Shown: piece after piece, positions 4,812-55,579 of the stretch
How positions within the stretch are numbered: the stretch's first letter is position 1
Layout: every line of letters begins with the position of its first letter
Source of the DNA: Prevotellaceae bacterium
GTDB lineage: Bacteria > Bacteroidota > Bacteroidia > Bacteroidales > Bacteroidaceae
Reading direction: 5' to 3'
Assembly: GCA_031262085.1 (NCBI GenBank)
Contig: JAISIN010000096.1
Span: 2,471-66,470, forward strand
Length of the DNA: 64,000 bases
Notes under the pieces: generated by a model
What the model saw: only the letters and a program-made list of their open reading frames with translations
The model's database searches: none
What the model was told of the DNA's origin: nothing
Program-made: the position numbers and the translations under genes

Positions 4812-4829
4812 ATTTTCAATACGTAGAGA

Positions 4830-5759: not shown

Positions 5760-5761
5760 TT

Positions 5762-6691
5762 TTAACGGCGAAACAAGTATCGGGATAACCATTTTTTCGA
5801 TTTACTCCCCATACTCAATATGTAATAGATAGACAAGCAAATAAACAAATTATATTTTTCTGTCCAAAGCTTCCGGATCGCATCATTTTTATATAACATC
5901 ATAAAATGGAAGAAGTATCCGGCAACTCTTAGTTCAACTTTCTTAGGAACAGAAACAATCGATAATATGTATTGCAATACCATTAACCCTTCCGAAAAGT
6001 AAAACCCGTCACTAAATGCTTTCGTCGATACACTAAGAGAATGTTTCCGCAAATAGTTATAGCATCTGTGTATTCTACCTACTTTTCCCTGATTCAATAG
6101 GGCAACCCATATATACCAATCGCCTGCCAATCTGAAAGAGGAGGCTCTTTCAATATCCGAGTCGCAACACACATCACGCCGAAAAAGCACACTACTCGCA
6201 TTGTATATTTTTGTTGTGTAAAGCATCTGCTTCCGAATGTATTCTTTTCCATCAATGAGCACGACTTCTTGCTCTCTATTTATAATATCTAACACCGCTG
6301 AAGTGATGTTCCCTTCACCGTCTATTATATAAGAATCGCAAGCTGCTATCACCACAGACTTGTCTAAATAGAATACCCTTACCATTTCTTGCAGAAAATC
6401 AGGATGTGCATAATCGTCGCTTTCGGCTATCCAGATCAAGTTGCCGGTAGCCATCTCTATTCCTTTTTTCCATTGTTTAAAGGTGGAGCCGGAGTTGACA
6501 TCATTGTAGACTATCCGGCTGACTTTTTGATTACCGCGATAACTTTCAATAATTTCACGACTATTGTCGATAGATGCATCATCTAACAAGATGATCTCGA
6601 AGTTTTGATAGGTCTGTTGCAACACGCTGTCTATTCGTAGCCTTAAATAGCGAGCATAATTATAGTTGGGGATTATTACACTAACTTTCAT
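5762..6691 (-). CDS. Glycosyltransferase family 2
   Basis: MKVSVIIPNYN, LDDASID, WIAESDD and GDW motifs. Confidence 0.93.
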   Translation of the reverse strand: MKVSVIIPNYNYARYLRLRIDSVLQQTYQNFEIILLDDASIDNSREIIESYRGNQKVSRIVYNDVNSGSTFKQWKKGIEMATGNLIWIAESDDYAHPDFLQEMVRVFYLDKSVVIAACDSYIIDGEGNITSAVLDIINREQEVVLIDGKEYIRKQMLYTTKIYNASSVLFRRDVCCDSDIERASSFRLAGDWYIWVALLNQGKVGRIHRCYNYLRKHSLSVSTKAFSDGFYFSEGLMVLQYILSIVSVPKKVELRVAGYFFHFMMLYKNDAIRKLWTEKYNLFICLSIYYILSMGSKSKKWLSRYLFRR

Positions 6692-9081
6692 CTGCTTACA
6701 TGCCGATAGGAATAGTAACCATACTTCCCATACCTCCCATAATAATACCCATAGTATCCATGCCGCACATCGACCGCATTCAGTACCACCGCCATATTGG
6801 GATATTTATGCCCGCTATACAACTTCTCTACCTCCGAAAGCTGCGCCCGCTCGAACAAACCGGCACGAATGACAAACAGCGTCATATCAACATGATTGCT
6901 GATGATAGAGGCATCTGCTACAAAGCCATCCGGCGGACAGTCGATAAACACATAGTCGTAGTCAGCACCTACCTCGCGTAACAGTTCGCCCAAGGCATGC
7001 TCCGTGAGCAATTCGGTGGGATTGGGCGGGATAACACCCACCGGAAGCACATCCAGATTGGGATGTAGCTTTCCATAAACAATCGACGCGCGATAATCAG
7101 CAAGGGTACCGTTCAGATAGAGAGAGACACCTTGCGACGGCGAATCGACCAACGCACTGACCGACGCCTTGCGTAAGTCGAGATCGACCACCAGCACCCG
7201 CTTGCCTTTGATAACGAAGCTCATCGCCAAATTGACCGTCATAAAGCTCTTGCCGCTGCCGGGGTGAAACGAGGTGGTCATGACAACGTTGTTCTTCTTC
7301 TCTTTCGTGGTGCTCATAAACTCGAAATGGGTGCGCACCATGCGGAACGATTCATTAATCAAGTCCGTGCTCTTATCTTTCACAATCACTTCAACATGTC
7401 GATGTCGACGCCGCCGCCTGATAGTGTGCGAGCGCTTCGCCTTACTCTCAGTAAGAGGAATCTCACCCAGATAGGGCAGCGACAACCATTCGATATCGCG
7501 TTTGCTACGCACCTTGGTATTCATCACCTCTTTTACATAAAGAATAACTATCGGTATAAGCAATCCGACCGCCAACGCCATCAGCAGACTGTTCCGTTTG
7601 AGCGGAGCAATGGGAGCGTAGCTGCCCGAAGTCGATTTGATGATGCGCACGTTGGAGGCGGTAAAGGCTTGAGACAACTCTGCCTCTTCGCGTTTCTGCA
7701 ACAGGAAGAGAAAGAGCGATTCCTTCACCTTCTGCTGCCGTTCTACCGAAAGCAGGTATTTGGCTTGCTCGGGGTTGGAAGCGATGCGGGCGGTGGTGCG
7801 GGCTTCGCTTTGCTCCAAATCGCCGATTTGGGTGATCAGACGATGTTCGGTATTGTCGATGGTTTCCAGAATGGTCTGCCGGATAGTCTCCAACGACCGG
7901 TCAAGCTCGCGCACCAACGGATGCGACTCGCCGCTGTTGGCTACCATGGTGTTATACTGCAACTGCAGCCTGTTGTATTCGCCTATCTGCTGGTCGATGC
8001 TGGAGTTCTCGATGCCCGAGTTGATAGGCAGCAGGTTGTGCTTGCCCATCCGTCCGTCGACATAGATGCGAATGTAACGCACCATCGACAATTGCGTGTT
8101 CAGCGCGAGGATGCGCGAGGAAGTTTGCTGCGACTGCGACAAGTAGAGGCTGGAGGTGGCTTGCACATCAGGAATCAGGTTTTTCCGTTTGAAGGAGGAG
8201 ATATCTTCGTCGACATGCCCCAACTCCCGCTCTATCACAGCCAATCGTTCGTTGATAAAAGCAGCGGTGGTGAGATTGACTTGATTGCGGTTCTTTGCCC
8301 AATTGTCGCTATAAGCGGCAATGATCGCATTGACTACATCTTTGGCACGTTGTGGCGAGACATCGGTGGCAGAGATGTTGATGATAGACGATTTATCACT
8401 GTTCAACTCAATGCCCAGACGGGCTACATATCCGCCTGCCACTGCCGACACCGACGAACGGCTCACACGAATCTCCGGATGAAAGGCGCTTGCATAGTAA
8501 GGCGTGGCGACCACCACCACCCTGCCTACCGGCGTGCGGAGGGTATCCGACAGCGTACCCGTCACGCTTTCGTCGGTTGCCTCTCCTACCGAAGAACCAT
8601 CAAACTCGGTTAGCTCGATCGTGCGGTTCTCGTCCAATCGAAGCAGAAAGCCACTGCCGCCATCTTCGGGAGCGCTATCTATGAAAGAAACCGTCACGGG
8701 CGACGTCTGCCCATACAACACGCGATCATACGACCAGTGACTAACGGTATACTCCACATTCAGTCGTAACATGCGCACCACCTCTTCCATGATGAGTGGC
8801 GAACCGATAGCTATCATCTCGTCGTTGATGCCGGTATCGAACTGAAACATCACGCCGGGCATATTGATGCCGCTACTCGAAGAGGAGCTGTTCTGTGAGA
8901 CATTCGACAGCAGAATGGAAGCCTGCTGCATATAGGTAGGAGGCGTGGTACTGATACGTGCAACGGCGATAACAAGCGCCGCACCGACGGAGAGCACAAA
9001 CCACACCCAATGTGCTCTGCACAATGCGAACATCTCTTTAACAGAGATGGAGTCGGCAAGACGGGGGGAAGGAGGAGGCAA
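6688..9081 (-). CDS. wzc: Polysaccharide co-polymerase / tyrosine autokinase (Wzc/GumC family)
   Basis: Two TM segments flanking a coiled coil, Walker A (SFHPGSGKS), VDLDLRK, IDCPP and a C-terminal Tyr cluster YYGYYYGRYGKYGYYSY. Start is TTG at 9081 or a later ATG. Confidence 0.93.
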   Translation of the reverse strand: MPPPSPRLADSISVKEMFALCRAHWVWFVLSVGAALVIAVARISTTPPTYMQQASILLSNVSQNSSSSSSGINMPGVMFQFDTGINDEMIAIGSPLIMEEVVRMLRLNVEYTVSHWSYDRVLYGQTSPVTVSFIDSAPEDGGSGFLLRLDENRTIELTEFDGSSVGEATDESVTGTLSDTLRTPVGRVVVVATPYYASAFHPEIRVSRSSVSAVAGGYVARLGIELNSDKSSIINISATDVSPQRAKDVVNAIIAAYSDNWAKNRNQVNLTTAAFINERLAVIERELGHVDEDISSFKRKNLIPDVQATSSLYLSQSQQTSSRILALNTQLSMVRYIRIYVDGRMGKHNLLPINSGIENSSIDQQIGEYNRLQLQYNTMVANSGESHPLVRELDRSLETIRQTILETIDNTEHRLITQIGDLEQSEARTTARIASNPEQAKYLLSVERQQKVKESLFLFLLQKREEAELSQAFTASNVRIIKSTSGSYAPIAPLKRNSLLMALAVGLLIPIVILYVKEVMNTKVRSKRDIEWLSLPYLGEIPLTESKAKRSHTIRRRRRHRHVEVIVKDKSTDLINESFRMVRTHFEFMSTTKEKKNNVVMTTSFHPGSGKSFMTVNLAMSFVIKGKRVLVVDLDLRKASVSALVDSPSQGVSLYLNGTLADYRASIVYGKLHPNLDVLPVGVIPPNPTELLTEHALGELLREVGADYDYVFIDCPPDGFVADASIISNHVDMTLFVIRAGLFERAQLSEVEKLYSGHKYPNMAVVLNAVDVRHGYYGYYYGRYGKYGYYSYRHVSR

Positions 9082-9126
9082 GAAAATTAAAAATTAAAAG
9101 TTGAAGAGGTTCTATCTAAAGTAGAG

Positions 9127-11034
9127 CTAACGGAAGATGGTGAAGAACAGGGTGGTAACAAACGAGGTCAGTGACATCCAGAAAGAGACCGATTGCATGT
9201 TATTGCCGTTGACGGTAGACTGGCGGGCACGCATGGAGTTGGGTTCTACGTAGATGACGTCGTTCTGTTGGAGATAATAGACCGGAGAGGCATATACATC
9301 TCGGACAGAGCAGAGATTGACGAGATAGGGCACTTGCTTACCTGCCTCTGTGCGCAACACCACGATGTGTTCGCGATTACCTTGTATGGTCAGGTCACCG
9401 ACCATGCTGAGGGCTTCGAGCAGGGTAAATCCATCTTTATCTATATAGATGCGCCCGGGCGCAACGACTTCGCCCAACACCGTAACGGAGAGATTGAGAT
9501 ACTCTACGGTAACTACCGCATCTTTGAGCAGGTCGCGACGGATCAACTCGTTTTGAACAAAGGCAGAGACCTCTTCCTTGTTCATCCCTGCTACCCGAAC
9601 GGTACCTAACACGGGAATGGTAATGCAGCCATGACTGTCGACGGTATAACCCGGCATCAGCATAGTGCTATTACGATTGTTATAGCTGTTGCCATATCTG
9701 TAATCGTCGGAAAACAGATTAAAGGGCTGCGTCAATTCCGGATCGCGACCGCTCACAATGACAGAGATGCGATCGCCAATGCTGAGCGCTATCGGACGGA
9801 TGAGGGGTGTTTGTTCTTCTGTCAGGGAGTCTACATCCTGAAAGTAGCGGATCTTTTTCACCGACCCGCACGAACTTGCCAATAATAGCAGGCAGCAGAG
9901 ACCAATTGCACAGGAGAGATGTAAAGCGCTACCAACCATAGCAGTGTGCTTTTTCACGCTGCGGGTTTTATTCATCATTTTAAATACAATTTTTGCATGA
10001 GGTATCAGTAGGAAGAGTATACCCATCGACAGTACGCCAGATAGCTGCCACGCTACGGAGGCGCCATACAAACAGAGCAATCCGTATCCCGCAAGAGCCA
10101 ATAGGTTGAGTGCAAGTATACACAAGGTGGCTACCCAATGGCTGCAGTTCGTATCGACCAGTAGGTGATGAAAATGTGTTCTGTCGGGCAGGAAGGGAGA
10201 TTTGCCACGAATAAATCTACCTGCAATCACGCGCACGCCATCGAACAGCGGAACAAAGAAGATGGCAAGTATCAACGGAATTACACCTACTCCTTTCTGT
10301 GTCCATAAAGAGATGCCGACGTCGCTCTGCTGCAACCGTATCGTAAAGAGAGCCATCAACATGCCCAGCAGCAAGGTACCACCGTTGCCCAGATACATCT
10401 TACGTTTGCTGCCAAACACATTATATACAAAAAACGGTATGATCGCACCGCAGCAGGCAATTGCCAATATGCCCCAAGCAATGAAATCTATATAGAAGAA
10501 GAGAATTCCGAAAATGGCACTCGCTATGAAACAAAAGCCCGAGCACAGACCGTCGATACCGTCTATAAAGTTGATGGCATTGATCAGACCGACACAGAAG
10601 AAGAGTGTCAGAGGTACCGATATCCACGAAGTTAATTGCCCAATACCACCCCAAAGTCCGAAGAAATGATTGATGCTCTCGTTGCTCAATGCCATAAACA
10701 GTAGCAGGCAGGTAGTTTCTATCAGTAAACGCATCTTGCACGACAGATGTAGCACATCATCGAGGGTACCTATGTAGAGCATCACCAGCAGTACAATCAA
10801 GACAAGAGGAGGCAACATCAGATTACCGTAAGCCACCGCACATCCGGCACTCAAACAGATACCGAAGAATATTGCCCAACCACCCAGCACGGGGACAGGC
10901 GTCTGTTGCAGCTTACGCCCATCGTAGCCATCGACCAGCTCCTTGGAGATTGCCAGTTTGAGCAACCATGGATAAATCCATCGCGTCGATAAAAGGGCTA
11001 TCACAAATGTCGCTAATAGCAAAAGAATGGTCAT
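9127..11034 (-). CDS. Single ORF fusing a WecA/TagO (MraY-like GT4) initiating transferase to a Wza-type export lipoprotein
   Basis: N-terminal half: PVPVLGG, GTLDD, INAINFIDGIDGL, MYLGNGG, PDRTHFHH. C-terminal half: lipobox LASSC, GDRISVIV, VDSHGCITIPVLG and an SLBB repeat TVLGEV..PG. Confidence 0.88.
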   Translation of the reverse strand: MTILLLLATFVIALLSTRWIYPWLLKLAISKELVDGYDGRKLQQTPVPVLGGWAIFFGICLSAGCAVAYGNLMLPPLVLIVLLVMLYIGTLDDVLHLSCKMRLLIETTCLLLFMALSNESINHFFGLWGGIGQLTSWISVPLTLFFCVGLINAINFIDGIDGLCSGFCFIASAIFGILFFYIDFIAWGILAIACCGAIIPFFVYNVFGSKRKMYLGNGGTLLLGMLMALFTIRLQQSDVGISLWTQKGVGVIPLILAIFFVPLFDGVRVIAGRFIRGKSPFLPDRTHFHHLLVDTNCSHWVATLCILALNLLALAGYGLLCLYGASVAWQLSGVLSMGILFLLIPHAKIVFKMMNKTRSVKKHTAMVGSALHLSCAIGLCCLLLLASSCGSVKKIRYFQDVDSLTEEQTPLIRPIALSIGDRISVIVSGRDPELTQPFNLFSDDYRYGNSYNNRNSTMLMPGYTVDSHGCITIPVLGTVRVAGMNKEEVSAFVQNELIRRDLLKDAVVTVEYLNLSVTVLGEVVAPGRIYIDKDGFTLLEALSMVGDLTIQGNREHIVVLRTEAGKQVPYLVNLCSVRDVYASPVYYLQQNDVIYVEPNSMRARQSTVNGNNMQSVSFWMSLTSFVTTLFFTIFR

Positions 11035-11129
11035 ACTTCCTTTATGTAATCAATTCGGAATATTCGGATAAGTTGCTGCATTCACGCTATCAGTCATCCG
11101 GCATACGGCTGTAACCGCAGAAAGTAGCC

Positions 11130-11169
11130 AAATAAATTAGAGTAAAAAAGTCTGGGATTGTGCCAACAA
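11130..11169. repeat. Direct repeat copy A (40 bp)
   Basis: AAATAAATTAGAGTAAAAAAGTCTGGGATTGTGCCAACAA; matches 12023-12064 with one substitution and a 2-nt indel. Confidence 0.9.
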
Positions 11170-11327
11170 GCGATTGTCGTTAGTCGAAGGAGATGGGAGA
11201 AGTATGGTAGCGACAGAAAAAACGACTGATAACAGCAAGGCATACCAATGGGGCTTCGATTAATAGATATAACACTAAAAATCAATTAATTATAGTTATA
11301 TTCAAGAAGACAACAAGCTCTTATAAA

Positions 11328-11587
11328 GTAGTATCTCTTAGTAAGAGAGCACACAAACAGAAACAGATATGCTTACAATAAATTCGATAATTATAGCATT
11401 ATATAAAGAATGATTCATATCATGCACGCTATTCCAAAATGCTAAAACCACATTTAACGCTTCTTTTGAAACTACTAAAAAATATTTTTCGTTAAAGTTG
11501 CCATTTATGCTTGTACAGCTTGCAAAACACGCTATATTTGTGCCCGAAAGTCTATTGTTTGTGTGCTCTCTTACTAAGAGATACTAC
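11328..11587. promoter_or_regulatory. Invertible promoter segment: 32-bp IRs at 11328-11359 and 11556-11587 enclosing 196 bp
   Basis: GTAGTATCTCTTAGTAAGAGAGCACACAAACA has an exact reverse complement at 11556-11587. Inside is a + strand Bacteroidetes promoter: CTTG 11510-11513, 19 nt, then TATATTTG 11533-11540. Confidence 0.88.
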
Positions 11588-11772
11588 ATTGGGGGGGTAC
11601 GAATCATCGCCATTTCTATTTGTCATTCTTCTGTACTATTTCATTTCAAAATAGCAACAAGTCATACGTAGACGCGTATAAACAATTGCAGCTTATCGCT
11701 TGCTGTAATATGTAAGCAAGGGATAAGCTGTAAGCAAACTCCACTCCTTCAGGAAGGATTCGTTATAGAGCC

Positions 11773-11960
11773 ATAAAAGATCGGTTTTTCAGGTTACGAG
11801 CAGTCGGCACTTTTTAGACCGTTCGTTCGGCACTTTTTAGACCGCTCGTTCGGCACTTTTTAGACCGCCCGTTCGGCACTTTTTAGACCGCTCGTTCGGC
11901 ACTTTTTAGACCGCTCGTTCGGCACTTTTTAGACTGAACTTATCAAAGAAGACGGAGCGT
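11773..11960 (+). repeat. Copy 2 of the 23-bp-unit element (leader, 1 partial + 5 full units, half hairpin)
   Basis: Leader ATAAAAGATCGGTTTTTCAGGTTACGAGCAG; units CG(C/T)(T/C)CGTTCGGCACTTTTTAGAC at 11804(partial)-11934; tail TGAACTTATCAAAGAAGACGGAGCGT. Confidence 0.95.
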
Positions 11961-11962
11961 CA

Positions 11963-12015
11963 GGGCAACCGCAACAAAAATAAAGTTAGCCCCATTAGTT
12001 TTGTTGCGGTTGCCC
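11963..12015. repeat. 17-bp perfect inverted repeat with a 19-nt loop
   Basis: GGGCAACCGCAACAAAA (11963-11979) / TTTTGTTGCGGTTGCCC (11999-12015). Confidence 0.9.
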
Positions 12016-12022
12016 AGACCCG

Positions 12023-12064
12023 AAATAAATTAGAGTAAAAAAGCCTGGGATTTTGTGCCAACAA
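12023..12064. repeat. Direct repeat copy B (42 bp)
   Basis: AAATAAATTAGAGTAAAAAAGCCTGGGATTTTGTGCCAACAA, immediately downstream (minus strand) of a TACATTTG box at 12066-12073. Confidence 0.9.
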
Positions 12065-12085
12065 ACAAATGTAGCACGACTATCG

Positions 12086-12877
12086 TCAATCTTTTATCCG
12101 CAGTACCCTGATTCCGGTGCTGTTTTTGTTGTTCTTGAGCATCCGCGACAACGATAGTTTAGACACGACTACTTTCTTTTCGGCAGAAGAGGCATGGAGC
12201 AGGCAGAGTGTACCGCGCACATAGAAGGCAATGCCCAAATGCGAAATGTCTAATCCCGGTATACGGGTAGTAATGGCAATCATGTCGCCATTCTTTATCC
12301 AAACGAATCCATTGTCGGGTAACTTCTCTTTGGGAAGATAGTGCACCACCTGTCCCGACAAGGTTTGCTCGATAGATTTCATCTTGGTTACATTCGCAGG
12401 CGAGGTGCGCAGTTGCTTGTAGAGGTCGGGGTGCGACGACATATACGACAGCGACACCGTTTGGGTATCGGCACTGTGCAGAGCGGTGATGTCGGTCAGA
12501 TACCCTCGTGCAATGGCATGGTTGATCCATTCGGTGGTGTAGTGCAAGCGCGAGGTGTAGCCGTCGACCTTACCGTTGCGATAGCGCAACGCTTGCACCT
12601 TGTCGATAAAGTCGATCTCGGAGATCTCACCGTCGACCACCGGGCAGAGCGACATGGCAAGAGTGTACTCCACAAAGGTGGTGCAGTCGACCTCGTCGCT
12701 ATTGATAACGAGTTCTTCGTCATTGTTCACCTCCAGCGTATGTGCCACGTAGGGAACATTCAGAAATTGTAAGCCGTTGCTTATCATTCGATCTCCGGCG
12801 TCCTGCGCCCGGAGTGTTGCTGCGGCAGAGCAAAGAATAGCTGCCCAAAGCATCGCCATAACATTCATCCTTTTCAT
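12086..12877 (-). CDS. DUF1460 / AmiA-like N-acetylmuramoyl-L-alanine amidase
   Basis: Signal peptide, PYVAHTLE, VDCTTFVE, RYRNG..YTSRLHY..W, GLDISHLG and LLHASS motifs. Start could be 12877 or 12901. Confidence 0.85.
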   Translation of the reverse strand: MKRMNVMAMLWAAILCSAAATLRAQDAGDRMISNGLQFLNVPYVAHTLEVNNDEELVINSDEVDCTTFVEYTLAMSLCPVVDGEISEIDFIDKVQALRYRNGKVDGYTSRLHYTTEWINHAIARGYLTDITALHSADTQTVSLSYMSSHPDLYKQLRTSPANVTKMKSIEQTLSGQVVHYLPKEKLPDNGFVWIKNGDMIAITTRIPGLDISHLGIAFYVRGTLCLLHASSAEKKVVVSKLSLSRMLKNNKNSTGIRVLRIKD

Positions 12878-12921
12878 CGTTTTCCAATTATCAAAATTCA
12901 ATTCTTACTTTTTAATGGTTG

Positions 12922-13692
12922 TCATCCTTCTATGTTTTGAACCTCCATCTCCTTCACCTTGCGGAAAAGGTCGGAAGCAAAGATAAAGTCGTTCAGTTGT
13001 TTGTTGCTGGAGGTGATAATATCGTCTTTGGTACCTTCCCACTCTTTGTGTCCTTCGTGTATGAACATAATTTTCTCGCCGATGCCCATCACAGAGTTCA
13101 TGTCGTGGGTATTGATGAGGGTGGTCATGTTGTATTCCACGGTGATGTCGTGTATCAGCTCGTCGATGACGAGCGACGTTTTCGGGTCGAGACCCGAGTT
13201 GGGTTCGTCGCAGAAGAGATACTGCGGGTTCAGGGCGATGGCTCGCGCAATGGCGACCCGCTTCTGCATGCCTCCGCTGATTTCGCCGGGAAACTTATCC
13301 TTGGCTTCGGTCAGGTTGACGCGCTCCAAGCAGAACATGGCGCGACGGGTGCGGTCGCGGTAGGTGTCGTCGCTGAACATGTTCAGGGGAAACATCACAT
13401 TGTCGAGCACCGACATTGAATCGAAGAGCGCCGCACTTTGGAAGATCATTCCCATCTCGCTCCGCAGCGTCTTCTTCTCGCGTTTGCCCATCGCCAAGAA
13501 GTTACGGTTGTCGTATAGCACCTCGCCTTGTTCGGGCACCAACAGTCCTACGATACATTTCAGCAGTACCGTTTTGCCGGAACCGCTTTGCCCGATAATC
13601 AGATTGGTCTTTCCGTTCTCGAAGGTGGCATTGATGTCGTGCAAGACCTCTATCCCATCGAACGACTTATAGATATGTTTGAGTTCTATCAT
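12922..13692 (-). CDS. mlaF: ABC transporter ATP-binding protein, MlaF family
   Basis: Start trimmed to MIELKHIYKSF; Walker A GQSGSGKT, ISGGMQKR, CDEP and THD; adjacent to MlaE. Confidence 0.9.
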   Translation of the reverse strand: MIELKHIYKSFDGIEVLHDINATFENGKTNLIIGQSGSGKTVLLKCIVGLLVPEQGEVLYDNRNFLAMGKREKKTLRSEMGMIFQSAALFDSMSVLDNVMFPLNMFSDDTYRDRTRRAMFCLERVNLTEAKDKFPGEISGGMQKRVAIARAIALNPQYLFCDEPNSGLDPKTSLVIDELIHDITVEYNMTTLINTHDMNSVMGIGEKIMFIHEGHKEWEGTKDDIITSSNKQLNDFIFASDLFRKVKEMEVQNIEG

Positions 13693-13697
13693 CTTGT

Positions 13698-14441
13698 TTA
13701 TCCCATTAAGAGTTGTGTCAATATCAGGTCGGCAAAGAGAATGAGCACGCTGCTGCTCACCACCGAGTTGGTGCTGGCTTTGCCTACTTCGATGGAACCG
13801 CCTTCGACGGTGTAACCGAAGAATGCCGACACGCTGGCGATGATAAAGGCAAAAAAGAGCGACTTGATGATGCCGCACCAGATGAACCACTCCACAAACT
13901 CGTACTGCAAACCGTATTCGAGGTCGACGGCAGTCATGATGCCGCCGAACCAGCAAGTAGCAAAGGCACCGATAATGCCGGCAAAGATGCTGAATATCAC
14001 CAATACGGGAATGGTGGTGATCATGGCAAATATCTTGGGAAGTATTAAGTAGCTGGCAGAATTGACGCCCATAATATCGAGTGCATCAATCTGCTGGGTG
14101 ACGCGCATGGTACCCAGTTCGGAAGCAATGTTCGAGCCTACTTTGCCTGCCAGTATCAGGCACATGATAGACGACGAGAACTCGAGCAGCATGATTTCGC
14201 GTGTCACATAGCCCACCGTCCAGCGCGGCATGAAGGGGCTTTCGATGTTCAACTTAATCTGTATGGTGATAACGGCGCCGATAAAGAACGAAATCAGCAA
14301 TACAATGCCGATCGAATCGACGCCGAGTTGCGCCATCTCTTTTACATATTGTCGGAAAAACATGTGCATCCGCTCCGGTCGGGCAAAGGTGCGCTTCATC
14401 AATAGGATGTATCTCCCGAAAGTTCGTAGGGCTTTTCTCAT
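13698..14441 (-). CDS. mlaE: MlaE family ABC transporter permease
   Basis: AGKVGSNIASELGTMRVTQQIDAL and GGSIEVGKASTNSVV are MlaE motifs. Confidence 0.92.
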   Translation of the reverse strand: MRKALRTFGRYILLMKRTFARPERMHMFFRQYVKEMAQLGVDSIGIVLLISFFIGAVITIQIKLNIESPFMPRWTVGYVTREIMLLEFSSSIMCLILAGKVGSNIASELGTMRVTQQIDALDIMGVNSASYLILPKIFAMITTIPVLVIFSIFAGIIGAFATCWFGGIMTAVDLEYGLQYEFVEWFIWCGIIKSLFFAFIIASVSAFFGYTVEGGSIEVGKASTNSVVSSSVLILFADLILTQLLMG

Positions 14442-14453
14442 AATTATATGCTT

Positions 14454-15281
14454 TCAATTATCACTGTGATAAGTTATTGTTGAGAAGTAATCGTAGTCGA
14501 CGAGGAGGTTCCAATAGGTATCGTTGCTTTGGAAACTTAGCAGCAGATCAAAATCTTCATTGGAAACTTCGTCCAACATACCATATAGTTTTCCTCGGTC
14601 TCTATCTATGTCTCCTTTCACTAATCCACACCTGTTTATATAACTCCAAATATGTCTGACCATTCGTAGAATCGAATCGTTTAATCCGAGAATATTCATG
14701 GTTAGCTGCTCCTCCTTTTCGTATTCCTTATCTTCTTTCCATCGAACTTCACCGTTGAACGCATATACAACCTCATTTTTGATTGTAGCGTATAAAACTA
14801 TCGGCTCAATATATTCGAATCCGCGCCTTAGGTTGCAACACGATATGGCGGGTGCTCCCGTTATAATCTTTCCATCGCAAGATGCCACTAAGTTTTGATA
14901 AGCCACAACATGCGGATAGGGAGGCTCTGCCTGATACACTTTGTTGACTTCCGTCAAACAAACATTGTCATTCAATACGGTATGCCTTTCCTCTTTAATA
15001 TACTTATTGAACTCTTCTTGTTGGGTTATGCTCCTTAAGATAAGATGTTCTAAGGTAATTTTATTATTCACGGTCAAACGGCGCATGCAATAGCAACAAT
15101 GATTATTCTGTTCTTCTAAAAGGATTTCAATAAGATCTTTCTGAGATTGCCCGCCCCTATCACTTTTAAACACATCGTAGAGATCTTGGGGATAGGGATC
15201 TTGCTCTTTCACTTGGTTTAGGAACGACTTAATAATAGCCTCTCCCTCCTCTCTTAATATTGTTTTATCGATATACTCCAT
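14454..15281 (-). CDS. HNH-type endonuclease (PtuB/TIGR02646-like)
   Basis: EEQNNHCCYCMRRL, TLEHL, YQNLVASC and CCNLRRG form the CxxC...EH...NL..SC...CN pattern; directly downstream of an ABC-like ATPase. Confidence 0.75.
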   Translation of the reverse strand: MEYIDKTILREEGEAIIKSFLNQVKEQDPYPQDLYDVFKSDRGGQSQKDLIEILLEEQNNHCCYCMRRLTVNNKITLEHLILRSITQQEEFNKYIKEERHTVLNDNVCLTEVNKVYQAEPPYPHVVAYQNLVASCDGKIITGAPAISCCNLRRGFEYIEPIVLYATIKNEVVYAFNGEVRWKEDKEYEKEEQLTMNILGLNDSILRMVRHIWSYINRCGLVKGDIDRDRGKLYGMLDEVSNEDFDLLLSFQSNDTYWNLLVDYDYFSTITYHSDN

Positions 15282-49240: not shown

Positions 49241-49609
49241 TTATGATGACTTATCCGTGTTCAAAAACAATTCCGCAAGAAACCTCACCATCGGATGGAT
49301 GATCAGTTTCTTGCGGAACACAGCAATCAAAAGTATCAGCAGCAGATGAAAGGCGGCTATAATGCCGTAGCTAACCACCAATCCACCTACTAACGGACTC
49401 AGAACATAAGCAAAAGTGAGTGAAAGATAAAACAGAGCAATCATGCCCAATACTATCAACAGCAACACAAGCACCATAGTGGAGAGCAATACACTCAACT
49501 TCTCAGTCAGTTCCAACTTGGTGTATTCCTTCTGCAACTCAAGGTATTTCTTAAACTCGATAAACAATTGCTGCAGATTATCAATATTCTTGTCGCTTGC
49601 AAACATCAT
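49241..49609 (-). CDS. Two-TM 'phage holin family'/YqjE-like membrane protein
   Basis: N-terminal coiled coil YLELQKEYTKLELTEK followed by two TM helices. Confidence 0.7.
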   Translation of the reverse strand: MMFASDKNIDNLQQLFIEFKKYLELQKEYTKLELTEKLSVLLSTMVLVLLLIVLGMIALFYLSLTFAYVLSPLVGGLVVSYGIIAAFHLLLILLIAVFRKKLIIHPMVRFLAELFLNTDKSS

Positions 49610-49648: not shown

Positions 49649-49858
49649 TTAGTCTTTCACTTCATTTTTCAGTTCGGCGGCAATCTCATCTACCAGATTG
49701 TCCATTTCTAAACCTTTCAGCGTGATACCCTTTTTACGAAGTATCTCGGCTATTTTAGAACGCGTGTCTTCTCCTTTTTCGGGAGCAAACAAGATACCAA
49801 CGGCAGCTCCAACGGCGGCGCCACCCAAGAATGCACATAGAACATTTAATCCTTTCAT
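49649..49858 (-). CDS. YtxH domain protein
   Basis: FLGGAAVGAAVGILFAPEKGEDTR is the YtxH signature. Confidence 0.88.
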   Translation of the reverse strand: MKGLNVLCAFLGGAAVGAAVGILFAPEKGEDTRSKIAEILRKKGITLKGLEMDNLVDEIAAELKNEVKD

Positions 49859-49952: not shown

Positions 49953-50678
49953 TTATTTTGAGCAAAGCAGTGACGGCAGCTCCTCCAAGCGTCTGACGCA
50001 GCACACATTCGGGCGCGTTACGGCGTGGGCAGGAATGCCCATGATGACTTGGCAGCCCAATGTAAGTGCCGGTTGGATGTCGTTCTTGTACGAATCGCCT
50101 ACAACCGCCACTTCGGCAGGAGTGAAGCCGGCTTGTTCGATAGCCAACCGCCACAGTTCGGGGTCGGGTTTGCGCACACCGGCTATGGTCGAATCGGTGA
50201 TGAAGTAGAAAAATGAAGCGATATCAAGGTCGGAAGCTATTTTGGCAATATTACCGTAGTAATTCGACACGAGCAACAAGGTGTACGACCGATGCAGGGT
50301 CTCCAGTACCGGACGGGCAGCAGCAACATAGCCCGATGCGTAGTCGGTGACCAATTGCGCAGCGCATTTGAAAATCGCTTCGCGCTCGTCGACCGGTAAG
50401 TCGATGGTTTCGTGCTGAAGCAGGTAGCGAAATTGCAACTGCACCTTAATATGTTGGGTTTCGTATAGGGAACACGTGGGCTGAACCAGATGGTGACGTT
50501 CCATCATCTGTTCGGCATAGATGTATGCTTCACGGAAGTTTTCGGGTGTCAGCGGTAATCTCATCTGTTCGACATATATCTTCAGATAGATATCCATCCA
50601 GTGTAGAAAAGGCGAATCGATAGTGCCTCCGAAGTCGAAAGCTATTGCCTTCAGGTTACTTGTATCAATGTGTGTCAT
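49953..50678 (-). CDS. HAD-superfamily hydrolase
   Basis: FDFGGT (motif I variant), LVSN, KPDP and VGDSYKND. Confidence 0.88.
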   Translation of the reverse strand: MTHIDTSNLKAIAFDFGGTIDSPFLHWMDIYLKIYVEQMRLPLTPENFREAYIYAEQMMERHHLVQPTCSLYETQHIKVQLQFRYLLQHETIDLPVDEREAIFKCAAQLVTDYASGYVAAARPVLETLHRSYTLLLVSNYYGNIAKIASDLDIASFFYFITDSTIAGVRKPDPELWRLAIEQAGFTPAEVAVVGDSYKNDIQPALTLGCQVIMGIPAHAVTRPNVCCVRRLEELPSLLCSK

Positions 50679-51673
50679 GATTTCTTTTTATTTCCTATTT
50701 TCATTAATCCCAATCCTATCACAACCCATACCAGCTCGCGCACACGGGTGATAAGGGCTGTATATACGCCATAGGCGCCCGACATGGAGAGACCGCCCAC
50801 AGCCAGCGCCAATCCGCCTTCGCGTCCGCCGATCTGCATCGGCATAAAAAAGAGCAGGTTTGCCAGCAGTGATGAGAATGCCAGTATCAGGAAGCAATCC
50901 ATGAAGCTGACATGCGTAGTAAGCACATTCATGATGAGCCAGATCTCGCCACAACTCACAATGCGAGCCAGATATTCCAAAAACAAGGCGCCGTAGAAGG
51001 CGCTTTTCCGTTGCCGATGCAGCAGGGAGATCTGTCGGTCTATCCCTTCGAGCTGAACGCGATACTTATCGGCAAAGCGAATGGCATGCTTTTTCAAGAG
51101 AGGTATCTTACTGCCCAGACGAATGCAAGCCACTGCCATGCCGTGCCGATAGCCTTTCACAAACAAAATGCCCAGCAGCAGGCAGAAGAGGATGATCAGA
51201 CCGAGCACAATGCCCATCTCCCAACTCACTTTATAGAACGACACAAATACCACAACTGCACTTATCCAGAACAGAAAGTGCGAACAGATGTGCATCATGA
51301 CGTACAGAATGACCGATGAGGTGGCACGCTCTACCCCCACATAAGGGGTCAGCTCCATGATTCGGTAAGGCTCGCCGCCCATCAGTCCCACCGGCGTGAC
51401 ATAGTTCAGCGAAAAAGCCGAGACGGTGAGTTTGTAGAGGTGGGAGAACGACAGTGAAGAGCTATCGCCGCTACTACGCACAATGATATACCACGACAAG
51501 GTGTTGATTAGGTAGACAAACAGCCACAGCAAAAGTACCAACGGCAGGTAGCCTCCGGCACGCTTCAGGTTACTCAGCAGCTCCTCGTAAGAGATGTTGA
51601 ATGTGCACAACATCACCATAACGGCTACGATGCCGAAGAGAAGAAAAAGGTTTCTAAATCGGGGGGTACTCAT
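50675..51673 (-). CDS. Lysylphosphatidylglycerol-synthase TM-domain (flippase-like) protein
   Basis: Multi-TM; NYVTPVGLMGGEPYR and MPMQIGGREGG motifs. Confidence 0.82.
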   Translation of the reverse strand: MSTPRFRNLFLLFGIVAVMVMLCTFNISYEELLSNLKRAGGYLPLVLLLWLFVYLINTLSWYIIVRSSGDSSSLSFSHLYKLTVSAFSLNYVTPVGLMGGEPYRIMELTPYVGVERATSSVILYVMMHICSHFLFWISAVVVFVSFYKVSWEMGIVLGLIILFCLLLGILFVKGYRHGMAVACIRLGSKIPLLKKHAIRFADKYRVQLEGIDRQISLLHRQRKSAFYGALFLEYLARIVSCGEIWLIMNVLTTHVSFMDCFLILAFSSLLANLLFFMPMQIGGREGGLALAVGGLSMSGAYGVYTALITRVRELVWVVIGLGLMKIGNKKKS

Positions 51674-52572
51674 GGCAGTTCGGCAGATAAAGAGGCAGAC
51701 AGGTGTTCGTGCTTTCGCACCATATATATAAAGAGCACGTTGAGCACGGTCAGTTCAAAGACAAAGTACACCCACGGCAAGCCGACCAACAGCGAGAGGC
51801 AAAGCACGATAGCGCGTGTGTTGAACGAGAGTATATTGGTGTACTTCATCAGTGGCAGGCTCTTCCGGCAGAAAGTTTGCCGTAGCGATTGCGGCGGCGT
51901 CTGGTCGGGATAATCTTGCTTCATCCGGTTGAAGAACGCTTGGAAACGGGGCGTCAGTTGCTCTTGCGAGTGTGTGTAATTTACGTAAAACCATTGGAAG
52001 AGTTTACGCACAAACGACCGTTTCCACGTGAGCGACCGAAACAGGCAGCGTTGTTGTTCGGCAGTATCGAGTTCGCTGCCCGTCTTCCCTTTCAGGAAGA
52101 ACAAGTGGATGTTGCGATAATAGTCTGCCATAGATGCCTGCTTGGTGTGCGAAAAGCCTGATACGGCAGCCAACACCCAGACCCAAATGCCCCACTCGGG
52201 CATGAGGCGCAAGCAGATAGCTGCATAGATAGAGATGAACCAGAGGTCGCCCGCCACTCCATCGAGGATGCGCCCCAGCTCTGACTTCTGTCCGGTGAGG
52301 CGTGCCAACTGTCCGTCGGCGCTGTCGTACATGTTTGCCCATACCAGCAGACAGATGCCGCCGATGTTCATCAACAGGTCGTCGGGGTAAAACAGAATGC
52401 CTGCTGTCACTCCCAGAAAAATCGATGCGACAGTCACTGCGTTGGGGGTGATGCCGATTTTTTGGAAGAGCAATGCCCAACGATAGCCTATCGGACGATA
52501 GAACACAAGGTCTATCCACTCTTCGGTATCTGTCGATTTAAGGCTGGCTTCCAAACTTGTTTCACTCATCAT
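51670..52572 (-). CDS. CDP-alcohol phosphatidyltransferase
   Basis: TPNAVT and the DSADGQLARLTGQKSELGRILDG signature (DxxDGxxAR...GxxxD). Confidence 0.92.
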   Translation of the reverse strand: MMSETSLEASLKSTDTEEWIDLVFYRPIGYRWALLFQKIGITPNAVTVASIFLGVTAGILFYPDDLLMNIGGICLLVWANMYDSADGQLARLTGQKSELGRILDGVAGDLWFISIYAAICLRLMPEWGIWVWVLAAVSGFSHTKQASMADYYRNIHLFFLKGKTGSELDTAEQQRCLFRSLTWKRSFVRKLFQWFYVNYTHSQEQLTPRFQAFFNRMKQDYPDQTPPQSLRQTFCRKSLPLMKYTNILSFNTRAIVLCLSLLVGLPWVYFVFELTVLNVLFIYMVRKHEHLSASLSAELP

Positions 52573-52590: not shown

Positions 52591-53448
52591 TCAATTTTTC
52601 ATTTTTCTGATAACGACCTCTGCAATGGCTTGTGCTGCCTCCCGTCGACAGGGAGCAAAGCTCGGCCAGTCGTTGAAGTCGATGATGCGTATGTTACCGT
52701 CGGGCGAAACGATGCAGTCTCCACCGTACACCTCTACTTGCAGCACCTGCGCGGCATCGGTACAGAGCTTGTGCAGTTGTACGGGTTCAAAGGGGATGCC
52801 CACCGGTATGCCGTTGACGGCTTCGAGTCCAAACTTGCTGTGATGCACCTCTTGCGGGTAGAAGTAGTAAAAGAAGTCGGTTCCGGCTACCCCGTAGAAT
52901 TTCACCAGATCGCCGACCAGATGTTCGTTGATGACAACACGTTCAATCCCTCTAAGCGCATATTCGGCAATGATTTCGGTCAGCTCGTGTCGGCTTCGCA
53001 CATAGGTTACATCTTCGCGATGAATGGCATGAAAGTCGGCACGCTTCACCCAGCAAACCTCAAAGGGTACGGCATCAGCCACAGCGTCCGGTCGGTCGGT
53101 TGTGCAAATCACGCTGTCGGGGTGCGGGATGTGGTTTGCCATGAGCAGCGAGGTCATTTGTTCGCGGGTACAGCCTTCGATTCCGAAAGCCGAGTTGACG
53201 GCTTTTACCCCTTGTTGTTCGAGTTGCTTCAGCCTGTTCACCGCAGCTTTGCCGCGCATCATGGTAAATACGACAGGCTCGCCTTGCAGTCCGTTGGTTA
53301 GAAACTCCTGTTCGGTATAAGTATGAACCGTGTATCCCAGCGCTTGCAGGCAGGTTGCCGTCAACGTGAAGATGGCAGCGTCGTTACCCACGTGATTGGG
53401 GGAAAAGAGCGTGTGTCGCTGTATGCCGGCTATATTGATTGGATTCAT
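52591..53448 (-). CDS. ATP-grasp-fold protein of unknown function
   Basis: VNSAFGIEGCTR, WVKRAD, INEHLVGDLVKFYG and YGGDCIV..IIDFNDWPSF are consistent with ATP-grasp. Confidence 0.65.
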   Translation of the reverse strand: MNPINIAGIQRHTLFSPNHVGNDAAIFTLTATCLQALGYTVHTYTEQEFLTNGLQGEPVVFTMMRGKAAVNRLKQLEQQGVKAVNSAFGIEGCTREQMTSLLMANHIPHPDSVICTTDRPDAVADAVPFEVCWVKRADFHAIHREDVTYVRSRHELTEIIAEYALRGIERVVINEHLVGDLVKFYGVAGTDFFYYFYPQEVHHSKFGLEAVNGIPVGIPFEPVQLHKLCTDAAQVLQVEVYGGDCIVSPDGNIRIIDFNDWPSFAPCRREAAQAIAEVVIRKMKN

Positions 53449-53455
53449 TGATTGG

Positions 53456-54160
53456 TCAGTTATCTGCTAAGAAACGTTCGGCTTTGCGGATGTCTTCCGC
53501 ATGGTCTACGTCGATAATTTTACTGAAGGGGAAGGCTTGTACGTGCAGCTTCGCATCTACCATATATTGCTGAAAACCCCTCATGCGGGCAATGCCCGAC
53601 TGCATGGCTTGAGGCAACAACGCCAATGCCCGGTGGTTCATGCAGTAAATGCCTCCGGATATGTAGCGGGCATCTGCACAGGGTGTACTACTGTAACCGG
53701 TTATCCGCAGGCTGTTGTCGGTACATACGTAGAGGGGTCGCTCATCGTCGATATAGTCGGTAACTGCCATCAGCGCATCGTGTGTCGGGTCTGTCTCGAA
53801 GGTGTGAATATATTTAGCAAACTCCGACGGACGAAACACCGGATCGACAGTGGTCAGACAGAACTTGTCTCCGCCTTGCAGACAGGGCATCAGTTCGTAG
53901 AAGCTGTGAAACGAGTCGGGTGTCGACTTCACCGTGAGGTGTAACGGAACAGGTAGTGTCAATGCTTCGACAAACCGTCTTACCTCCGTCATCTCTTCAT
54001 TGATAATGAGGCAGATGCTCTCTGCCTCATTATCAATGAAGATGCGGAAGAGACGTTCCAACAAAGGAACGCCGCCCACCTTGACCAATGGCTTGGGAGC
54101 GGCAATGCCTTCGGACACCAAGCGCGAGCCTTGTCCGGCAGCGATGAGCGCATACTTCAT
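53456..54160 (-). CDS. Nucleotidyltransferase (NTP_transferase; possible inositol-phosphate cytidylyltransferase)
   Basis: LIAAGQGSRL...PKPLV and IIDVDHAED. Confidence 0.85.
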   Translation of the reverse strand: MKYALIAAGQGSRLVSEGIAAPKPLVKVGGVPLLERLFRIFIDNEAESICLIINEEMTEVRRFVEALTLPVPLHLTVKSTPDSFHSFYELMPCLQGGDKFCLTTVDPVFRPSEFAKYIHTFETDPTHDALMAVTDYIDDERPLYVCTDNSLRITGYSSTPCADARYISGGIYCMNHRALALLPQAMQSGIARMRGFQQYMVDAKLHVQAFPFSKIIDVDHAEDIRKAERFLADN

Positions 54161-54181: not shown

Positions 54182-55471
54182 TTAGTCCAAATAATCGGGT
54201 GCCTCTTCGCCTACCAAGCTGCGGATTGTTTGCTTAACCATACGCCATTGCGTAAACAGGTCGTGTACCGGCTCGTGCTCGGAGTCGTGCATGGGGCTTT
54301 TGCAGAAGAACGACAGCCATGTTTGTATGCCGTACATGTCGGCACGCAAAGCAAGGTCGCTAAAAAGCACCAAGTCGAGTGCAATAGGAGCTGCTAAAAT
54401 GGAATCGCGGCAAAGGAAGTTTACCTTTATTTCCATCGGATAGCCCATCCATCCGAAGATATCGATGTTGTCCCATGCCTCTTTGTTATCCTTACGGGGC
54501 GGATAGTAGTTGATGCGCACTTTGTGATACACCTCTTTATATAGATCGGGATACTTTTCGGGTTCGAAGATACTGTCAATCACCGAAAGCTTGCTTACTT
54601 CCTTGGTTTTGAAGTTTTCGGGTTCGTCGAGCACCTCACCGTCGCGGTTGCCGAGTATATTGGTCGAGAACCATCCGCTTACGCCCAGCATACGCGTTTT
54701 GAACATCGGGGCGAGCACGGTCTTCATCAGGGTCTGTCCGCTCTTGAAATCTTTTCCGGCAATAGGTATCCGGGTCTTCTCGGCAAGCTCCCACATGGCA
54801 GGGATATCGACGCAGAGGTTAGGCGCTCCCATTACGAAGGGCGCTCCTTCCGAAAGGGCAGCATACGCATAACACATACTGGGCGATATGACAGTGGTGT
54901 TGTTCTCTTTCATGGCTTTCTCCAAGGCTTGCAATGAGTTGTGCTCTTCCGAGAGGGGGATATAGATTTCAGTACTTGCCGCCCACAGCATCACCACGCG
55001 GTTGCATTGGTTATCGGCTTTGAAGTTGCGGATATCTTGGCGGATCTGCTCTACCAGCTCCCAACGCGTTGCGGCTTGTTTGATGTATGTTCCGTTCAGT
55101 CGTTTAGCCCAATTGTGATCGAATGCGGCAGGCATTGGTTTGATGTTTTCCAATTCGTCTTTCACCAAGTCTAAATCACTGTTTTTCAATACTTGGGCAA
55201 CCTGTGCTGCTTCATACGCATTGTCAGGAAATATATCCCATCCACCGAAAGCTATGTCATTAAGGTCTGTCAAAGGAACTACGTCTTTAATGAGCTTTTC
55301 CTCTCCGTGCTTCATTTTTATCTTGGCCATCTGGGTAATCGAACCTATCGCTTTAGTCAATCCCTTGCGGGCAGCCAAAGTCCCCGTTATCAGTGTAGTC
55401 GAAACCGCACCGCCCACTCCAACAACCAGCACTCCCAAGCGCCCGGTTGCCGGCTTAATGTTCTCTTTCAT
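54182..55471 (-). CDS. ino1: myo-Inositol-1(3)-phosphate synthase
   Basis: GVGGAVSTT, FGGWDI, GKDFKSGQT, STNILGNRDG, SKLSV, DNKEAWD and RDSILAAP. Confidence 0.94.
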   Translation of the reverse strand: MKENIKPATGRLGVLVVGVGGAVSTTLITGTLAARKGLTKAIGSITQMAKIKMKHGEEKLIKDVVPLTDLNDIAFGGWDIFPDNAYEAAQVAQVLKNSDLDLVKDELENIKPMPAAFDHNWAKRLNGTYIKQAATRWELVEQIRQDIRNFKADNQCNRVVMLWAASTEIYIPLSEEHNSLQALEKAMKENNTTVISPSMCYAYAALSEGAPFVMGAPNLCVDIPAMWELAEKTRIPIAGKDFKSGQTLMKTVLAPMFKTRMLGVSGWFSTNILGNRDGEVLDEPENFKTKEVSKLSVIDSIFEPEKYPDLYKEVYHKVRINYYPPRKDNKEAWDNIDIFGWMGYPMEIKVNFLCRDSILAAPIALDLVLFSDLALRADMYGIQTWLSFFCKSPMHDSEHEPVHDLFTQWRMVKQTIRSLVGEEAPDYLD

Positions 55472-55579
55472 TGTTACGATAACTTTTATTAGTTTATAAA
55501 ATGCCCCAAAATTAGGCTATTTTGTTCAATCGATACTCCTCTTCTTGTCTGTTTTCATCTTTCATTTGCAAGATTTAAG

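Follow-up and report, generated by a model that had tools for sequence, protein, structure and literature searches.

The window analysed here is a stretch of 64,000 nucleotides (nt) from a Prevotellaceae bacterium (contig JAISIN010000096.1 of assembly GCA_031262085.1). Its source is a metagenome-assembled genome (MAG) from termite gut, and only in this sense does the 'gut bacterium' of a first-pass annotation of the sequence apply. Our subject is an open reading frame (ORF) on the minus strand (53448..52591, ATG start, 285 amino acids (aa)), whose existence was confirmed. It encodes an orphan ATP-grasp protein for which we discuss a role as inositol kinase in the synthesis of inositol lipids. 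The gene is the third in a co-directional, tightly packed minus-strand row that comprises genes for myo-inositol-1-phosphate synthase (MIPS), a nucleoside triphosphate (NTP) transferase, the ATP-grasp protein, a cytidine diphosphate (CDP)-alcohol phosphatidyltransferase, an LPG_synthase_TM/HpnL-like membrane protein and a HAD hydrolase. It lies 8 nt after the NTP-transferase gene and 19 nt before the CDP-alcohol transferase gene. The features are:

54182..55471, minus strand: MIPS, 429 aa, the operon's first gene (PF07994, E 4e-104)
53456..54160, minus strand: NTP transferase, 234 aa, divergent relative of inositol-1-phosphate cytidylyltransferase (IPCT) (PF12804 and PF00483)
52591..53448, minus strand: orphan ATP-grasp protein, 285 aa, candidate inositol or inositol-monophosphate (InsP1) kinase (ORF, AlphaFold2 and Foldseek fold, family conservation)
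53044..53046, minus strand: codon of K135 in W-x-K-R, the ATP-binding lysine, invariant in the family (family alignment and hhalign)
52882..52932, minus strand: INEHLVGDLVKFYGVAG, residues 173-189, hinge strand with the near-invariant K183 (HMMER alignment)
52657..52686, minus strand: IIDFNDWPSF, residues 255-264, last beta-strand with the Mg ligands D257 and N259 (D-x-N), of ITPK-like form (hhalign and HMMER alignments)
51670..52572, minus strand: CDP-alcohol phosphatidyltransferase, 300 aa, BEPIS-like (PF01066)
50675..51673, minus strand: LPG_synthase_TM/HpnL-like membrane protein, 332 aa, flippase-like, accessory (PF03706, E 3e-25)
49953..50678, minus strand: HAD-IA hydrolase, 241 aa, with the atypical motif I FDFGGT, which has no Asp+2 (PF00702 and PF13419)

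The best NCBIfam match of the NTP transferase was IPCT/DIPPS, at only E 2e-9, and the enzyme is presumed to consume the product of the ATP-grasp protein. The CDP-alcohol transferase showed weak NCBIfam matches to AIP and PIP synthases. With its row of NTP transferase, CDP-alcohol transferase and HAD genes, usually accompanied by MIPS, the operon matches the B. vulgatus-type alternative inositol-lipid cluster. The 'putative alternative inositol lipid cluster' described for Bacteroides (Phocaeicola) vulgatus and Prevotella has the same gene set and order as the window, namely an NTP transferase, a CDP-alcohol transferase and a HAD protein near MIPS together with an LPG-synthase-like gene (Heaver et al., 2022; PMC9246714). 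The model proposed there includes only three proteins, BVU_RS13095, RS13105 and RS13115 (NTP transferase, transferase and HAD), and the term 'ATP-grasp' has 0 occurrences in the text of that paper (PMC9246714).

The ATP-grasp family is carried by at least 593 species (one genome per species) and comprises 5872 clusters at 90% identity and 1194 clusters at 50% identity. Its members are annotated in their sources as 'hypothetical', rarely as 'ATP-grasp domain-containing', and a literature search found no paper characterising the family. The window protein matched no Pfam family at E values up to 10, and neither Pfam nor PDB yielded a useful match when searched with the single sequence. NCBIfam returned RimK, MptN and LysX matches far below threshold, which covered residues 64-124. 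For the RimK-type model TIGR00768, the score over these residues alone was 29.9 bits against a cut-off of 143.4. Neither PF08443 nor, at gathering score, PF05770 or PF17927 was matched, and the family hidden Markov model (HMM) detected no paralogue of the protein in its own genome. The family is an orphan branch of the ATP-grasp enzymes without a Pfam model.

For the structure, an AlphaFold2 model was obtained with high confidence (pLDDT 87, pTM 0.86), and Foldseek assigned it to the ATP-grasp fold with probability 1.00 and TM values of about 0.7 to Ddl, ArgX and RimK. Residue conservation was derived from 119 diverse members. W133, K135, G179, Y185, G242, D244, N259 and P262 were invariant, while R11, D23, E46, R65, N85, R95, D146, H176, K183, D257 and D260 were conserved in at least 90%. 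Judged by this three-domain predicted fold and by K135, D244, D257 and N259, all invariant or nearly so, the protein is a member of the ATP-grasp superfamily, and the first-pass annotation was right on this point. The motif D.N.[FWLY]P[SG][FY] occurred once among the ORFs of at least 150 aa in the genome (1.38 million residues), and this occurrence was the ATP-grasp protein. Conservation of H140 is restricted to Bacteroidia. A 15-residue insert (HSKFGLE..NG..G) is present in Bacteroidia and absent from the ATP-grasp proteins of loci L094-L111, which belong to other classes of the phylum.

Genomic context provided stronger evidence than fold or sequence similarity. We compared 80 species loci (L001-L080) of carriers of the ATP-grasp gene. 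The order NTP transferase, ATP-grasp, CDP-alcohol transferase was kept across these loci, with the NTP transferase found in 76 of the 80 and the CDP-alcohol transferase in 79. A HAD gene was adjacent in 73/80 loci, and the flippase-like gene was found in 19/80. Together with the row in the window, this context confirms the earlier placement of the protein as the third gene of an inositol operon. Among 301 sampled genomes of the order, all 37 carriers of the ATP-grasp gene also had the orthologous transferase, as had all 23 carriers among 401 sampled genomes of the phylum. In the loci that were read, the transferase gene lay beside the ATP-grasp gene or within a few kilobases. Fusions point in the same direction. 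NTP transferase and ATP-grasp domains are joined in single ORFs of about 500-547 aa from several 50%-identity clusters (P0127, P0160, P0165, P0203 and P0215), and locus L089 carries such an ORF of 513 aa at 5910-7451. An ATP-grasp/HAD fusion of 503 aa (P0269) was found as a single cluster representative. Adjacent or fused kinase and nucleotidyltransferase genes are typical of salvage pairs such as HldE, FKP and AmgK/MurU. By these data, the ATP-grasp family belongs to the core enzymes of the 'B. vulgatus-type' CDP-inositol lipid pathway.

A further ORF of 691 aa (P0242) combines PAS-HisKA-HATPase and ATP-grasp domains and is possibly a gene-call artefact.

Co-occurrence with MIPS, which the first-pass annotation had proposed as a check, was found only in part. 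MIPS was adjacent in 46 of the 80 loci and not adjacent in 34, and 25 of the 80 carriers (approximately 30%) have no MIPS anywhere in the genome. The latter include isolates of Tannerella forsythia, P. distasonis, P. chinchillae, P. faecalis and Massilibacteroides vaginae. Since the published model starts from inositol phosphate made by MIPS (PMC9246714), it cannot explain these carriers. T. forsythia has no inositol synthesis and was shown experimentally to build its inositol-phosphodihydroceramide from exogenous free myo-inositol; the authors noted a BEPIS homologue, found 'no candidates for an inositol kinase' and thought a cytidylyltransferase to be absent (PMC4587543). In strain ATCC 43037 (L037), we found the BEPIS homologue in a row of NTP transferase, ATP-grasp, transferase and HAD genes. 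B. thetaiotaomicron has the other, CDP-diacylglycerol-dependent pathway and hardly uses exogenous inositol. When ATP-grasp proteins from MIPS-plus (56) and MIPS-minus (25) genomes were compared, 105 positions were at least 90% identical in both groups and zero columns were group-specific, and MIPS status changes at least 8 to 11 times on the tree. Because the conserved residues are alike in both groups and MIPS was gained or lost repeatedly, the enzyme should act on one substrate common to both situations, for which free inositol is the obvious candidate.

In two Tannerella loci (L037, at 3536-5206, and L034), a gene for an Asp-Al_Ex/TrkA_C permease of the YidE/YbjL type overlaps with the 5' end of the co-directional NTP-transferase gene, and the permease is possibly an inositol importer. 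As a conserved transporter beside MIPS-less clusters it was rejected, close copies being confined to these two loci. Four Bacteroides loci have an approximately 22%-identical relative on the opposite strand.

The reading we favour, and which in our judgement stands about evenly between right and wrong, is that the ATP-grasp protein phosphorylates free myo-inositol (or InsP1) and so supplies the cytidylyltransferase. Its gene is the best candidate for the missing inositol kinase of this pathway. The ATP-grasp enzyme would convert ATP and free myo-inositol, possibly inositol monophosphate, to an inositol phosphate, from which the divergent NTP transferase would form CDP-inositol. The CDP-alcohol transferase would then transfer phospho-inositol from CDP-inositol onto dihydroceramide or a glycerolipid. 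MIPS-less species would take up free inositol from their surroundings. In MIPS carriers it could be supplied by an optional de novo route consisting of MIPS and a phosphatase, with the HAD protein as candidate. No carboxylate substrate is evident in the pathway, which favours a kinase, and the final lipids of T. forsythia, B. vulgatus and P. veroralis carry an unmodified phospho-myo-inositol head group (PMC4587543, PMC9246714). The first-pass annotation had proposed an inositol-phosphate kinase. A kinase is still the best reading, but its substrate would be free inositol or InsP1 and its step would precede that of the cytidylyltransferase. No support was found for the more highly phosphorylated inositol species that the annotation had also implied, because the lipids of cluster carriers have the plain head group.

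The catalytic site was compared with those of inositol kinases and ligases. Both motifs on which the kinship with inositol-trisphosphate 5/6-kinase (ITPK1) had been based are present in the ORF, INEHLVGDLVKFYGVAG at residues 173-189 and VYGGDCIVSPDGNIRIIDFNDWPSF at residues 240-264, and the ITPK1 motifs given there for comparison were roughly right, since human ITPK1 (HsITPK1) reads VVQNFINHNAVLYKVFVVG and LFGIDIIINNQTGQHAVIDINAFPGY. The HsITPK1 query was checked and is 100% identical to PDB 2odt. In the hhalign alignment K135 is paired with K157, H140 with H162, and the Mg triad D244, D257 and N259 with D281, D295 and N297, which corresponds to the ITPK-type triad. W261-P262-S263-F264 aligns with F-P-G-Y of HsITPK1, P262 being paired with P300. 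The last strand, IIDFNDWPSF, resembles the ITPK strands VVDVNVFPSY (EhITPK1), IVDLNYLPSF (AtITPK4) and VIDINAFPGY, whereas the ligases have E-x-N at this place (MEVNSSPGL in RimK 7qys, LELNASAMF in PsnB). The alignments thus agree with the earlier observation of a D-x-N (D-F-N) signature as in ITPKs instead of the E-x-N of RimK and PsnB. In the hinge strand, HMMER aligned GdlvKFYgV of the family with GADIRCFVVG of RimK and GDDVRVYVI of PsnB, so that position 183 is Lys in the family and Arg in both ligases; the G-x-D-x-R hinge arginine of the RimK type is therefore replaced by Lys183. From these alignments, D257 in place of Glu and K183 in place of Arg appear to be catalytic-site traits that the family shares with ATP-grasp inositol kinases, which would favour a kinase.

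Several observations weigh against this reading. When the full model was compared with PDB by Foldseek, no ITPK1 was found among the top 50 matches, all of which were ligases (Ddl, RimK, ArgX, PsnB). The separately predicted catalytic half (residues 100-285) again gave only ligases and no ITPK1 in the top 50. The model clusters with amino-acid ligases in both forms, an outcome that the first-pass annotation had itself named as counting against its proposal. By profile, PsnB (E 2.4e-9) ranked before RimK (5.6e-7), which was approximately equal to HsITPK1 (2.2e-6), and because of this ranking nothing in sequence or fold says 'kinase'. The inositol-phosphate contacts conserved in ITPK1 are H167, K199 and R212 (PMC6900528). 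In the hhalign alignment they were not matched but paired with E145, E169 and G179, in a central part that is out of register; by eye, K183 could correspond to K199. Furthermore, clusters with MIPS would have no strict need of a kinase if the NTP transferase accepted inositol 3-phosphate (Ins3P). Finally, a role of the HAD protein as Ins3P phosphatase is shaky, because the gene is kept in MIPS-less species and its product has no Asp+2.

The profile comparisons need to be read together with their yardsticks. We used a narrow family profile (A1) and a broader one. EhITPK1 was the best PDB match of the narrow profile (E 7.6e-5), one of the three matched stretches being out of register, and was rejected as closest relative since this rank was lost with the broader profile. 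The latter gave PsnB 1.3e-6, EhITPK1 2.9e-4, AtITPK4 3.2e-4, RimK 4.7e-4, HsITPK1 9.4e-4 and ArgX 0.015. Local hhalign probabilities and E values were 96% and 2.4e-9 for PsnB, 92% and 5.6e-7 for RimK and 89% and 2.2e-6 for HsITPK1; since a search for ITPK1 homologues returned vertebrate orthologues only, no diverse ITPK profile lies behind these comparisons. The Ddl of the same genome reached only 2% in hhalign, and therefore Foldseek ranking and sequence relatedness disagree. Among the 119 members, sub-threshold Pfam matches were obtained to ATPgrasp_ST in 13, to Ins134_P3_kin (PF05770) in 10 (best E 0.0036) and to RimK in 9. Kinship with ITPK1 by sequence, as first proposed, is thus no closer than with RimK or PsnB, and membership of the window protein in the ITPK1 family is not supported by either the profiles or the predicted structure. 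The ITPK-like traits of the family are real but local, and the predicted fold alone would decide neither for a kinase nor for a ligase.

The main rival, in our view a minority possibility of some weight, is a true ATP-grasp ligase. Such an enzyme would convert a carboxylate to its acyl-phosphate and couple it to a hydroxyl or amine on the cyclitol head group or on a precursor of the head group, with an aminoacyl or acyl inositol or inosamine as a conceivable product. Ligases (Ddl, RimK, ArgX and PsnB) are nearest by fold and profile, the weak NCBIfam matches are to RimK, MptN and LysX, and a flippase-like membrane protein of the MprF type is encoded nearby. The rival draws further on an expanded cluster in other classes of the phylum (L094-L111, for example L097 at 3966-15194), to which genes for MlaE, MlaF, MlaD, a class-III aminotransferase and a GFO/IDH/MocA oxidoreductase are added. 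The order there is NTP transferase, MlaE/F/D, one or two tandem ATP-grasp genes, aminotransferase, transferase, oxidoreductase, flippase-like gene, HAD and MIPS. This gene content points to a head group with an aminated cyclitol, served by a dedicated lipid transporter of the Mla type. The aminotransferase and oxidoreductase could make an amine nucleophile for a ligase, and the occasional tandem duplication of the ATP-grasp gene may be taken in the same sense. The expanded cluster also fits modification of a free cyclitol before its re-phosphorylation. However, the ATP-grasp gene is core in hundreds of clusters without an aminotransferase, the operon has no gene for a carboxylate donor or partner, and the lipids of T. 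forsythia, B. vulgatus and P. veroralis contain plain phospho-myo-inositol. Moreover, the family differs from RimK and PsnB by D-x-N for E-x-N and by Lys for Arg, and it is fused to a soluble NTP transferase that acts before lipid attachment.

A second rival, which we consider quite unlikely, is a kinase that adds a second phosphate to Ins3P or CDP-inositol. The resulting lipid would derive from an inositol bisphosphate and resemble phosphatidylinositol phosphate (PIP), and the HAD protein would then remove the extra phosphate, according to a mycobacterial/BT-like logic on a CDP-inositol chassis. This scheme has the merit of giving every core gene a job, HAD included. It is consistent with the transferase/HAD fusion of Prevotella veroralis (PMC9246714), with the ATP-grasp/HAD fusion P0269, with the PIP and AIP synthases as best NCBIfam matches of the transferase and with the ability of ITPK1 itself to phosphorylate InsP1 (PMC6900528). 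On the other hand, MIPS-less species would need two phosphorylations starting from free inositol, and no PIP-like intermediate has been reported for these species. The properties of the HAD protein also argue against it. In all orthologues recovered from L001-L080, motif I reads FD[YF]GGT[IL]D, with Asp+2 replaced by Gly. Asp+2 is the general acid/base of canonical HAD phosphatases, and Gly at this place is found in dehalogenase- or phosphonatase-like members. Among PDB sequences, the nearest is human HDHD3, a protein of unknown function. Where the cluster is split, the HAD gene goes with MIPS and not with the transferase. In Dysgonomonadaceae (L059/L060), the trio of NTP transferase, ATP-grasp and transferase genes is bordered by uvrB, rimM and a gene of the EPSP-synthase family, and HAD and MIPS form a separate pair (G009:C20 = L125, 5307-7574; G721:C4 = L126). 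This modularity also counts in favour of the main reading. On sequence grounds, both the assumed phosphatase role of the HAD protein and the 'PI-DHC synthase' role assigned in the 2022 paper are uncertain.

The boldest reading of the first-pass annotation, a genuine bacterial enzyme of the ITPK1 type with soluble higher inositol polyphosphates (InsP3 to InsP6) as products, is very improbable: the common D-x-N-x-W-P-S-F strand, the narrow-profile EhITPK1 match (E 7.6e-5), the hhalign probability of 89% to HsITPK1 and the position near MIPS in the operon speak for it, but the protein matches neither PF05770 nor PF17927 at E up to 10, is no more similar to ITPK1 than to RimK or PsnB, leaves the substrate-contact residues unmatched in the hhalign alignment, has no ITPK1 in its Foldseek top 50, is kept without MIPS and has as its obligate partner a nucleotidyltransferase and not further InsP kinases.

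Beyond a kinase on free inositol as such, a more far-reaching and rather unlikely version can be drawn. The protein would be a bacterial ATP-grasp myo-inositol kinase distantly related to ITPK1 and PPIP5K that 'walks' the phosphate. MIPS would make D-Ins3P, the HAD protein would free inositol and the ATP-grasp enzyme would re-phosphorylate it elsewhere, for example at D-1, so that the divergent cytidylyltransferase could form a CDP-inositol isomer unlike that of archaea and Rhodothermus. The same step could serve scavenging of host inositol in MIPS-less oral and gut species and entry of an aminated cyclitol in other classes.

The family shares several features with known systems. With the ITPK1 family (PF05770 and PF17927; PDB 2odt, 2q7d, 1z2n and 7pup) it has in common the ATP-grasp fold, the ATP lysine, one histidine, the Mg ligands, a strand of the form D-x-N-x-(F/W)-P-(S/G)-(F/Y) and the inositol context; InsP1 from MIPS can serve ITPK1 as starting substrate (PMC6900528). 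Unlike ITPK1, it has a cytidylyltransferase as partner, ligases as fold neighbours and no Pfam match, and in place of signalling polyphosphates its probable substrate is free inositol or InsP1 for activation of a lipid head group. The RimK/LysX/ArgX and PsnB-type ligases (PDB 5zct, 7qys, 3vpb and 7drm) match best by fold (TM about 0.7) and at least as well by profile, and they are similar in size, three-domain layout and G-x-D-x-(R/K) hinge strand. They differ by E-x-N and Arg in place of D-x-N and Lys; the family scores far below the NCBIfam and Pfam cut-offs, and its context contains no peptide or amino-acid substrate.

As far as cited in two later papers, the CDP-inositol pathway of Rhodothermus marinus consists of MIPS, IPCT and BEPIS (Jorge et al., 2015, via PMC4587543 and PMC9246714); it has CDP-inositol as head-group donor and the same broad transferase family, and the organism belongs to the same phylum as the window. 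Two minimal transferase-MIPS-IPCT loci (L113 and L117), of Rhodothermus-like content as far as that pathway is cited there, differ from the window by a canonical IPCT (E 1e-38 and 5e-30), no ATP-grasp and no HAD gene, and their transferase is only about 30% identical. The large distance of the window's NTP transferase from canonical IPCT (E 2e-9) suggests a different phospho-substrate. Salvage pairs such as HldE, B. fragilis FKP, AmgK/MurU and LicA/LicC follow the same logic, X-OH to X-P to NDP-X, and their genes are likewise neighbours or fused. Their kinases have other folds, ribokinase-like in HldE, GHMP in FKP and protein-kinase/APH-like in AmgK and LicA, and to our knowledge no ATP-grasp kinase has been described in such a role.

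The fitness of gut Bacteroidota is influenced by inositol sphingolipids and phospholipids, and in the periodontal pathogen T. forsythia inositol lipids account for roughly one quarter of membrane lipid. With this family, which has no Pfam model and occurs in at least 593 species, there is a clonable candidate for the inositol kinase. Should the protein prove to be a kinase, no earlier ATP-grasp enzyme would be known that supplies a nucleotidyltransferase, and bacteria would possess an equivalent of the ATP-grasp inositol kinases of eukaryotes. New here are the residue test between MIPS-plus and MIPS-minus carriers, the profile comparisons against yardsticks, the negative Foldseek result with the catalytic half, the HAD-MIPS split and the atypical HAD motif.

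Some further loci and features were noted. An ATP-grasp-less version of the same cluster was considered and rejected. Nine loci (L081-L088 and L120) have a CDP-alcohol transferase paralogue of 44-48% identity but no NTP transferase, ATP-grasp, HAD or MIPS gene; its only partner, in 5/9 loci, is the flippase-like LPG_synthase_TM gene, which indicates a different system. A MAG labelled 'Clostridium sp.' (L065) has a typical Muribaculaceae/Prevotellaceae-like cluster, which in the tree falls within those rows; a mistake in binning or labelling is a more probable cause than transfer to Bacillota. Upstream of the window operon, a putative promoter element was read from the sequence:

55507..55514, minus strand: TAATTTTG, candidate Bacteroidota-type -7 box, approximately 36 nt upstream of the MIPS ATG

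The Bacteroides -7 consensus is TAnnTTTG, and TAATTTTG is the probable promoter of the operon. Downstream of the HAD gene, two small genes follow on the same strand. The first (49650-49858, minus) encodes a 69-aa protein with an N-terminal hydrophobic stretch and the second (49241-49609, minus) a 122-aa membrane protein with a weak Phage_holin_3_6 match.

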